A stretch of DNA of 64,000 bases. It comes from Escherichia coli. GTDB taxonomy: Bacteria > Pseudomonadota > Gammaproteobacteria > Enterobacterales > Enterobacteriaceae. The stretch lies in assembly GCF_030013595.1 (NCBI RefSeq), contig NZ_CP122770.1. One strand, written 5' to 3'. The notes under the pieces are model-generated. The model made no database searches and was not told the DNA's origin. It was given only the letters and a program-made list of their open reading frames with translations. The number at the start of each line of letters is the position of its first letter. Within the stretch, counting starts at the first letter, position 1. The position numbers and the translations under genes are program-made. This document shows positions 49,237 to 50,728 of the stretch, piece after piece.

Positions 49237-49791
49237 TTGCGCGGAGCGTTGAACTTCGTGAATATAGAACACCTGAATAACCGGAACTGGTATCTTGCGC
49301 AATATAATACAGCCGGCAAAAACAGAGAATCTTTATTCTCATGGCTGAATGAGCAAAACGTCGTACCATGGACTCCATTAATAACAAGAAAGATAAGACG
49401 GGCAGACTCCAGGTGCTGTTACCGTGAAAGAATATTCGCTATTTTTCCAGGGTACTTTTTTATTCTGGCTAATTTTGACATTCAACCAGTATCGGCATTA
49501 CGTCGCCATAGCGCCTTCATTGATTTCGTGAAGTTTGGCGGTGAAATAAAACCCGTCAATAAAGATATTGTTGATGGATTAATGAAGATTTACCCGGACC
49601 CTGTGCTAAATCCGGGAGCCAAGGAAGAGCTGAATGCGGCTTCCAGCATATGGCTGACAAAAGCACAATATCAGTATCTCCTCAGAATGGAAAATACTCT
49701 CCAGCCTGAGTCGAGGATATCCCTGCTCCTGGAACTGGTATCAAATGCCGAACATCACGGCTTTATGGAGCGCCTTGTAAACATCCCATAG
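49237..49791 (+). CDS. traB: TraB-like NusG/RfaH-family antiterminator (start uncertain, possibly GTG 49258)
   Basis: NGN-like N-terminus (NWYLAQYNTAGKN...FPGYFFI) and KOW-like C-terminus. Confidence 0.65.
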   Translation: MRGALNFVNIEHLNNRNWYLAQYNTAGKNRESLFSWLNEQNVVPWTPLITRKIRRADSRCCYRERIFAIFPGYFFILANFDIQPVSALRRHSAFIDFVKFGGEIKPVNKDIVDGLMKIYPDPVLNPGAKEELNAASSIWLTKAQYQYLLRMENTLQPESRISLLLELVSNAEHHGFMERLVNIP

Positions 49792-49800
49792 CCAGTATTT

Positions 49801-49826
49801 CCCGGCCTTCGGGCCGGGCTTTTTTC
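49801..49826 (+). terminator. Rho-independent terminator after traB
   Basis: cccggccttcgggccggg hairpin followed by T6. Confidence 0.65.
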
Positions 49827-50044
49827 AATTCAAGAGAATATTCTGGAGTGAAGCCTGCACGGAGCCATCCCCACCATGGACTCCCCCTGTCTTTTGATGG
49901 AACCGTGTATTTCTTAATGGCGAAAGAAATAAAAGGCTTCACCCCAGAGTATTGATTCGTTTTATCAAAGGCCGGCCCGTGCCATCACGTGTGGCGGAGA
50001 GAACGGATACCGGTCTTCTTTTCATCTCACAGTAGGACATTCGC

Positions 50045-50728
50045 ATGACCACGACAGAACATCCCGTGCGCCAGTTGCTCTGGTGTGCACTGAATGCCCT
50101 GAAAACGGCACAGGAAAACCACAATATAACCAGTGAAACCGGATTACGGCATTACCTGCTTGAATGGCTTTCTGGTGCCAGCAGACATCCTGAGTTCCGT
50201 AGTCTCCCTGGCGAAATCATGGCGTTAAAAGCATTGACCGAAAAAGATCGCAATATTCCCATCATCGGAACGCTGAATACGCTCTTTCTCAGCTCTGCCA
50301 CTGTCGGGGAATGTCCGTTGTTTCGTTTTCGGGCTGCACTGGGTAAATTACAGAAAGCAGGCTGGCGCACATATGTCTGCCCATGGCCTGAGAGGGTGTT
50401 CAATGAATCCATTGAACGGGCCTGTTCCGGGAAACGTCATCTGCTACAACTAAGTCGCACCGAAGAGTGTTTTCTACCGACAGGCGATATGAGGGCACCA
50501 GTTACGTTGCAGCTGATCACTCCACTACACCGCAAAACTATGCAGCTTCTGGAAACGGCAGAGTTAATATTCTCCGACGAAGGATTTCAGGTGGTGAGAG
50601 GATACGAACATCAATTCGGGATCGAACGCAGAGAAACCCTCTTTCACACCCTATTTATCGGGCTGCCCAGCTTGCCAGAAGATGTCTGGGGTGCAACACA
50701 GGAGCAGACGACTATCACATTACACTGA
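50045..50728 (+). CDS. Conserved transfer-region protein (traC/pilI-region; identity uncertain)
   Basis: 227-aa ORF between traB and pil cluster. Confidence 0.4.
   Translation: MTTTEHPVRQLLWCALNALKTAQENHNITSETGLRHYLLEWLSGASRHPEFRSLPGEIMALKALTEKDRNIPIIGTLNTLFLSSATVGECPLFRFRAALGKLQKAGWRTYVCPWPERVFNESIERACSGKRHLLQLSRTEECFLPTGDMRAPVTLQLITPLHRKTMQLLETAELIFSDEGFQVVRGYEHQFGIERRETLFHTLFIGLPSLPEDVWGATQEQTTITLH

Follow-up and report, generated by a model that had tools for sequence, protein, structure and literature searches.

A candidate ops-like minihairpin in the leader of traB, the gene for an RfaH-like regulator of IncI1 plasmid transfer

Introduction

TraB is an RfaH-like NusG paralogue encoded at the head of the transfer genes of IncI1 plasmids. 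Here we analyse the traB locus in a 64,000-nucleotide stretch of Escherichia coli DNA (contig NZ_CP122770.1 of assembly GCF_030013595.1; hereafter the window) and describe a short core, related to the ops element of RfaH, that lies in the traB leader and is a candidate for the site at which TraB is recruited.

The need for TraB in pil transcription and in transfer has already been published. Deletion of traB from pESI lowered pilV, pilS and pilT transcripts about 4-fold and took transfer below the detection level, and traB supplied in trans brought the pil transcripts back (PMC5013300). TraB and TraC were both needed for transfer of pESBL, as seen by transposon sequencing (PMC4288162), and of pMS7163B. 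TraA raises traB expression, acting through upstream DNA (PMC5801416). To judge from titles and citations, the designation of traB and traC as positive regulators goes back to 1993. We found no paper defining the recruitment site or the mechanism of TraB in the literature searched. A reading of the window made from its sequence alone (the sequence-only reading) had argued that an RfaH-type paralogue implies a recruitment element in cis, possibly one that departs from the chromosomal ops consensus. The comparative evidence presented below backs this expectation, at a place other than the one that had been proposed.

Results

The window belongs to an IncI1/I-gamma plasmid. Positions 48400-52300 are 99.9% identical to the Salmonella plasmid NZ_CP044960.1 (typed IncI-gamma/K1) and at least 95% identical to about 1,400 IncI1-type plasmids (more than 1,400 records in PLSDB). 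As the sequence-only reading had it, traB lies 5' of the pil genes: traB (49258-49791, + strand; 177 amino acids; PGAP annotation, homology and structural model) is followed by an intergenic spacer (49792-50044), by traC (50045-50728, +; identified by synteny) and then by pilI, pilK, pilL and onward, and in the complete plasmid all transfer genes from traA to trbC are on one strand across about 50 kb. The open reading frame (ORF) that had been drawn at 49237-49791 (+) exists, but with its TTG at 49237 it is too long; GTG 49258 is the most likely start because PGAP annotates it and homologues have ATG at the aligned position.

The product belongs to the NusG/RfaH family, as had been proposed, and is RfaH-like but not RfaH. 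It matches Pfam NusG with 22.2 bits, exactly at the gathering score, and the NCBIfam RfaH model TIGR01955 over residues 11-167 (E 4.7e-11), where its 42.9 bits stay below the cutoff of 144.5; with NF006534 it reaches 37.3 bits, again below the cutoff (124) of an RfaH equivalog, that is orthologue-level, hidden Markov model (HMM). Among solved structures, the best sequence match is PrfaH of IncX3 plasmids (PDB 9IK0, E 1e-11), and E. coli RfaH aligns over the full length, weakly, with E of about 0.05-0.06. The AlphaFold model of TraB has a predicted local distance difference test (pLDDT) score of 72.8, with the NGN domain in the 80s. Its top Foldseek matches are RfaH bound to ops DNA (5OND), PrfaH (9IK0) and autoinhibited RfaH on ops-paused polymerase (8PFG), at E-values between 2e-8 and 2e-7; the best of the matches, spanning about 160 columns, are to autoinhibited RfaH. 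The model shows residues 119-167 entirely as helix, but with a pLDDT of only 55-67; with low confidence, the C-terminal domain is thus predicted to be all-helical, as in autoinhibited RfaH.

The residues with which RfaH reads ops (PMC5995543) are not kept in TraB. In the pairwise alignment, which is weak (E 0.06), RfaH K10, H20, R23, Q24, T72 and R73 correspond to TraB T18, W29, E32, Q33, H84 and S85. The TraB segment R82-R83-H84-S85 overlies the RfaH contact segment N70-R73, with residue 83 aligned to the ops-contacting A71.

An ops-like core, CGCGGAGCGTT, lies at 49240-49250 (+) and ends 7 nucleotides before the traB GTG. It equals the ops core GCGGTAGCGT, GCGG(T)AGCGT, minus T6. Comparing five loci with TraB proteins of 53-93% identity, we first observed the block GGATCRRTTyyGCGCG(R)AGCGTT, followed after 6-8 nucleotides by the start codon. 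In the full comparison of 27 traB loci, L002 and upwards in our numbering with TraB identities of 42-99%, the form G-Y-[G-N1-2-A]-R-C, then N-T, is kept in 26, down to about 50% TraB identity. It occupies -18 to -8 relative to traB in all loci and is the best-conserved non-coding block across them. The invariant columns of alignment A5 (G49241, G49243, A49245, C49247 and T49249) are the two stem pairs, the loop-closing G and A, and a T two nucleotides downstream of the hairpin. E. coli ops, GC[GGTA]GC, has a loop from G4 to A7, an architectural C3:G8 pair and a polymerase pause at U11 (PMC5995543). The IncI core is predicted to fold as DNA into the same shape as ops, and its invariant T corresponds to the U11 pause.

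The loop varies among loci. GC[GGA]GC is found in the window (W) and in L002, L006, L007, L011, L012, L016, L017, L031, L034 and L037; GC[GAA]GC in L003, L004, L008-L010, L019, L028-L030, L032, L033, L035, L036 and L038; GC[GCGA]GC in L005; and GC[GAGA]GC in L018 and L021. In L020 the core reads GT[GGA]AC, a compensatory change from C:G to T:A on both sides of the stem. Six of the seven lineages whose loop is GGA have Arg at TraB residue 83, and all three whose loop is GAA have A, Q, M or S there, a suggestive link between this residue and loop specificity (naive Fisher p of about 0.03, with lineages not phylogenetically corrected). Locus L005, from a plasmid typed as mobilizable only, has an extra C in its traB-leader core, so that a GCGA tetraloop replaces the GGA triloop and the frame of a mini-ORF in the leader is fused to traB; its copy on the traA side retains GGA (3482-3498 versus 2415-2431 in L005).

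The core is present in more than one leader. The exact 11-mer CGCGGAGCGTT occurs twice in the window against 0.06 expected, the second site lying 5' of traA at 48178-48188 (+; C-G-C[GGA]G-C-G then TT). A hairpin pattern search of the complete plasmid revealed a third core outside the window, between traG and traH and about 210 nucleotides before traH. The suggestion that other tra leaders be inspected for ops-like motifs therefore proved a good one. The region that had been put forward first did not yield: between the traB stop and pilL there is no ops-like hairpin motif on the + strand. The candidate at 49240-49250 lies instead at the very start of the interval that the sequence-only reading had flagged, in keeping with its expectation of a non-canonical site, but within a stretch that it had read as traB coding sequence. 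Overall, its observation was partly confirmed and its interpretation partly supported. The degenerate pattern G-Y-G-N1-2-A-R-C-N-T is not enriched plasmid-wide (26 versus 23 expected and 47 versus 45 expected), and the three copies are singled out only by their extended context.

All three copies are intergenic, on the + strand and part of a shared module of about 150 nucleotides, 77% identical between them, whose 3' end the core occupies. A search with nhmmer and an 11-module profile located copy 1 at 48044-48194 (+; E 1e-33; alignments A1, A3 and A5), 5' of a C4-like RNA and traA and about 40 nucleotides before the mapped Hft region, and copy 2, the traB leader, at 49109-49255 (+; E 5e-32; alignment A5). 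The copy in the traH leader recurs with at least 95% identity in about 1394 plasmids, always unannotated. By profile search, the IncI1 plasmid carries three modules, whereas IncK2/Z, pOP-I and a 55-kb plasmid carry a single one, always the traB leader, with no extra copies. No Rfam family matches the module.

The module is a structured RNA. In the traB leader, RNAalifold predicts a long covarying stem (49115-49200, +, with arms 49115-49136 and 49178-49200) that encloses hairpin H1 (49151-49171, +), followed by hairpin H2 (49214-49237, +), whose 3' arm is the conserved GGATCGRTTY. Across the 16 modules aligned, 24 of 33 pairs show compensatory changes. In helix 1 (85% paired), both sides change in 18 of 22 pairs, and in helices 5 and 6, which form H2 (88-91% paired), in four of seven. 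A count on the fixed structure gave 83.8% paired cells compared with 71.2% in shuffles and 33-43% in slid controls, and on all five whole-structure measures the observed value went unmatched in 500 shuffles. There are 89 G.U cells and 26 A.C cells, an excess which places the structure on the sense (+) strand and so argues that the element is transcribed. H2 ends 12-13 nucleotides before the conserved T at which we propose that the polymerase pauses, close to the spacing of hairpin-stabilised pauses. The conserved H2 arm also contains a Dam site, within GGATCG.

A promoter consensus scan and manual inspection of the sequence 5' of the modules found no convincing conserved -35/-10 pair, with the exception of an extended -10, TGATATACT, spotted by eye before copy 3 (traH). 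A C(C/G)GCCAA box, which may be a promoter or activator site, precedes the module by 25-30 nucleotides (for example at 49091-49097 and 48019-48025) in W1, W2, L003, L004, L016, L018, L020 and L021; variants of it occur in L002, L010, L011, L017 and L019, and it is absent from the traH copy, the one that has TGATATACT. We also considered a leader peptide, either a 40-amino-acid ORF at 49130-49252 or an 8-codon mini-ORF, and rejected it: 9 of 16 modules lack the start codon, the frame is interrupted by indels, and base pairing explains the variation.

An intrinsic terminator, CCCGGCC-TTCG-GGCCGGG then CTTTTTT, follows traB at 49801-49826 (+; terminator scan). A terminator is found 3' of traB in all 15 diverged loci, with differing stem sequences, and traC always lies 3' of traB and its terminator. 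The terminator scan and the minimum free energy fold also revealed a terminator-like hairpin with a T-run at 48181-48210 (+), which overlaps the 3' half of the copy-1 core.

Canonical ops sites are absent from the transfer region, where matches are at chance level only. The consensus GGCGGTAGnnTG has no perfect match in the window or in L022, the part from traA to excA of a 99.9%-identical IncI1 plasmid. With one mismatch it has none on the + strand of the transfer region, and its single match in the window, at 15288, lies outside that region. With up to two mismatches the window holds 65 matches against 47 expected. The sequence-only reading had pointed to GGCGGAGAGAAC as a partial ops match at about 50003-50014; it lies at 49993-50004 (+), 10 nucleotides away. 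It shares five of ten specified ops positions, GGCGG only, and is consequently not among the matches with up to two mismatches, and GGCGGAG occurs 14 times in the window. Retention of the motif is limited to the close relatives L005 and L016 (as GGCGGAGAG); L017, L003, L018 and L004 have lost it. Furthermore, GGCGGAGAGAAC is predicted to form no DNA hairpin and falls within the stem of a hairpin that precedes traC.

On the ori/CIS side of repZ, past the 3' end of the gene, CGCGTTAGCGTG at 45956-45967 (+) agrees with ops at 10 of 12 positions, has TCAGAAC before it and is kept as CGCGTCAGCGTG in L002 and L005. This site is probably unrelated to TraB.

The spacer between traB and traC is strongly structured at 49845-50025 (+; fold z = -4.75). 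At about 49845-49950 it contains a conserved long hairpin, GAGTGAAGCC...GGCTTCAC, with arms that covary in L017, L003 and L018, and at about 49970-50025, just before traC, a second hairpin with a T-run. This stretch may be a second attenuator. TraC itself has no Pfam match, and NCBIfam gives nothing or only weak DUF2913 matches, distant homologues included. Its AlphaFold2 model (pLDDT 85.8) combines an N-terminal helical bundle with an alpha/beta domain and has no significant fold match in the PDB (Foldseek, template-modelling score at most 0.27). TraC is an essential partner of TraB with a predicted orphan fold.

Upstream of traB, repZ is at 46344-47420 (-; gene order and annotation) and traA, encoding a small regulator with a LuxR / sigma-70 region 4 helix-turn-helix (Pfam Sigma70_r4_2 and GerE; annotation), at 48529-48816 (+). 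In the interval from the repZ control region to module copy 1, positions 47780-47990 (+) are dense in short repeats containing GATC (AGATCT, CGATC, GATCATT), and similar GATC-rich stretches lie 5' of traB in L002 and L004. Directly 3' of the traA stop, a hairpin at 48821-48845 (+), GTGTCCCC-ATTAAA-GGGGACAC then TTTC, which is kept in L005, may be a weak terminator parting traA from the traB leader.

Ahead of traA, a C4-type antisense module at 48250-48476 (+) comprises a1b1-like targets (48250-48302) and a C4 RNA (48389-48476; Rfam RF01695, 77.5 bits with a gathering score of 45; RF03163, 32.9 bits, below its gathering score). Weaker c4-a1b1 and isrK-like matches lie 5' of the C4 RNA, and the trio of C4, c4-a1b1 and isrK-like matches is found before a traA-like gene in L005 and L003 too, and is missing where there is no traA. 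By our mapping, the published 270-bp Hft region of pESBL (PMC4288162) falls at about 48237-48506 and would coincide with the C4 module. An antisense switch of the phage-P1 immI type may therefore explain how Hft insertions and single-nucleotide polymorphisms derepress traA. Two Hft papers make no mention of a C4-type antisense module.

Discussion

Judging from the sequence comparisons, we hold it to be somewhat better than an even bet, and the most likely of the explanations considered, that TraB is recruited at the minihairpin in its own leader (49240-49250), a shorter relative of ops, and then reads through into traC, pil and tra. Starting from the observed conservation, covariation, copy number, terminators and protein homology, we infer a course of pausing, binding and read-through. 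RNA polymerase would transcribe the leader and pause at the T or Ts after the minihairpin, possibly aided by RNA hairpin H2 ending 12-13 nucleotides upstream. The exposed non-template hairpin, C-G-C[G-G-A]G-C-G then TT, would recruit TraB via its NGN domain, and the TraB-modified polymerase would pass the terminator at 49801-49826 and later signals, so that traC, the pil genes and then the co-oriented tra and trb genes, about 50 kb, are expressed. Without TraB, transcripts would end after traB, which would make the cassette a positive-feedback switch. In IncI1 plasmids, further loading at the module of the C4-RNA/traA unit and at the traH module would give three entry points.

More tentatively, and with more doubt than belief in the whole, the module could be an undescribed composite antitermination leader, in which a covariation-supported structured RNA (long stem, H1 and the pause-type H2) is fused to a GNA-triloop DNA minihairpin. 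In each I-complex plasmid the minihairpin would be read by that plasmid's TraB, with residue 83 tuning to the loop; the triplication in IncI1 would license three units over 50 kb, and the whole would be wired to the P1-type C4 switch (Hft) and to TraC.

Several observations weigh against recruitment of TraB at the minihairpin. The pause consensus G-10/Y-1/G+1 fits in the window, L005, L017, L020, L004 and L031 only, +1 being C or A elsewhere. Energies of the minihairpin are not separable from those of shuffles (nearest-neighbour, z -0.4 to -0.7), and the change in L020 is the only compensatory one inside the minihairpin itself. The most diverged locus, L013 (Cedecea; 42% TraB identity), has no recognisable element or module, the two L005 copies differ in their loops, and the other I-complex plasmids carry the traB-leader copy alone. 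The model also leaves the essential role of TraC unexplained.

Two further points against it speak for its main rival, which is a role of the core at the RNA level. In RNA folds the element's 5' flank is drawn into the pairing of H2, so that such a role is possible, and the core contains GGAG, which in L011 and L012 has ideal Shine-Dalgarno spacing. The core could act through a sequestered Shine-Dalgarno GGAG, through coupling to the mini-ORF (MDRFCAER stop), as a hairpin that binds a protein or small RNA, or as a leader RNA that recruits TraB in the way of LoaP or put/nut-type systems. The mini-ORF, ATG GAT CGG TTT TGC GCG GAG CGT TGA, ends 5 nucleotides before the traB GTG; the leader is clearly a structured sense RNA; GCGA and GAGA are GNRA tetraloops; and an hfq effect has been reported as data not shown (PMC5801416). 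Against this, the core is retained in copies 1 and 3, where no start codon stands at a set spacing from it, plasmids with GAA and GCGA loops have no Shine-Dalgarno sequence in it, and of the 16 A5 modules 9 have GGG or CTG in place of the mini-ORF's ATG and 7 have 1-nucleotide indels that break its frame. GNA triloops closed by G-C are reportedly a trait of DNA, being notably stable there and not in RNA, as in the d(GCGAAGC) minihairpins associated with Hirao and Yoshizawa. In addition, the homologue PrfaH binds single-stranded DNA (PMC11880322). We therefore give an RNA-level role a modest chance.

TraC, TraA or some host factor might also bind the element or module as a double-stranded promoter or operator, with TraB recruited elsewhere or without a specific site. 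Three copies at the heads of transfer units, an essential TraC always linked to traB, the activation of traB by TraA via upstream DNA (PMC5801416) and the short inverted repeat CGC-GGA-GCG would all suit such a role. We nevertheless find it improbable, since covariation of the RNA type, tolerant of G.U on the sense strand, shows the module to be transcribed, the element persists without traA in L002, L004, L016, L017 and L020, the TraC model has no recognisable DNA-binding fold, and 9 bp is short for the site of a dimeric operator.

A less probable idea still is that the element recruits the chromosomal RfaH of the host instead of TraB. Liu et al. 2019 found that cefotaxime-induced traF expression on the IncI1 plasmid pTF2 needs rfaH, and they place an ops element, its sequence not shown, in the tra promoter region and assign it to host RfaH (PMC6768964). 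The IncI core is a single deletion away from ops. But the missing base is T6, the very one flipped into the RfaH pocket (PMC5995543), no canonical ops within one mismatch occurs on the + strand of the transfer region, TraB itself is essential, and the rfaH effect may be indirect, via lipopolysaccharide, waaP and waaQ having come from the same screen. Finally, we dismiss GGCGGAGAGAAC as the ops-like site with near certainty: for all its position on the non-template strand between traB and traC and its retention as GGCGGAGAG in two relatives, it is a chance-level match, lost in diverged loci and buried in a long stem.

Recruitment of TraB at its leader minihairpin would resemble the RfaH/ops system (GGCGGTAGCGTG) in many respects. 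Both involve a NusG paralogue with an NGN domain and a C-terminal domain that in TraB is predicted, at low confidence, to be helical; an element on the non-template strand of a transcribed leader, transcription of the IncI leader following from the sense-strand covariation; a minihairpin with a G...A-closed loop on a G-C/C-G stem, then N-T at the pause position, a proposed one in IncI; and, as target, a very long, horizontally acquired set of operons that includes a conjugation system. They differ in the loop, which in IncI is GGA or GAA (three nucleotides) or GCGA or GAGA instead of GGTA and is without the flipped T6. The RfaH pocket residues H20, R23 and R73 are W29, E32 and S85 in TraB, which fits the absence of T6 from the core. 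Furthermore, the gene for TraB lies in cis, at the first position of its unit, and the IncI element is preceded by about 130 nucleotides of conserved RNA structure.

A longer conserved leader block with an ops or ops-like site at its 3' end and RNA stem-loops is also a feature of JUMPStart, which is said, after Hobbs and Reeves (1994) and Marolda and Valvano (1998), to be a 39-bp sequence of polysaccharide operons with ops at its 3' end and flanks that can form RNA stem-loops. By comparison, the IncI module has about 150 nucleotides and strong covariation, and it shares no sequence similarity with JUMPStart. With LoaP and the UpxY proteins of Bacteroides, TraB has in common that the paralogue gene heads the operon it activates and that the specificity signal is in the 5' leader; those proteins belong to other subfamilies (the LoaP HMM gives only E 0.003), and the signals are unrelated in sequence.

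A close parallel in arrangement is PrfaH of IncX3 (ActX family). It binds an ops-like non-template stem-loop in its own 5' untranslated region at -42 to -25 and helps the polymerase past a termination signal before virB1, and the paper describing this names R64 TraB as a homologue without giving a site for it (PMC11880322). Like TraB, PrfaH is encoded on a plasmid, resembles RfaH and is indispensable for transfer; the stem-loop, a candidate one for TraB, is on the regulator's own leader, non-template strand, and a termination signal lies between the regulator gene and the genes for the type IV secretion system. We confirmed the IncX3 site, TCGGGGTCATCCGAG, in an IncX3 plasmid sequence. It has a 3-bp stem and a 6-nucleotide loop and is not matched by the IncI core (CGCGGAGCG at -18 to -10). 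The IncI system adds a structured leader, the presence of three copies on each plasmid, TraC as a partner and the C4 antisense layer, and, whereas the site of IncX3 has been proven by experiment, that of IncI is a computational candidate.

We believe that an 11-nucleotide candidate site, together with a conserved terminator and a structured leader, reduces the question of TraB regulation to a few point mutants. The loop variants GGA, GAA, GCGA and GAGA, with their diverged TraB proteins, constitute a natural specificity series for the reading of non-template DNA by NusG paralogues. IncI1 and other I-complex plasmids are among the main carriers of extended-spectrum beta-lactamase and AmpC genes in E. 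coli and Salmonella, and recruitment of TraB at the leader minihairpin would account for the way in which a single small protein might license co-oriented transfer genes over about 50 kb.

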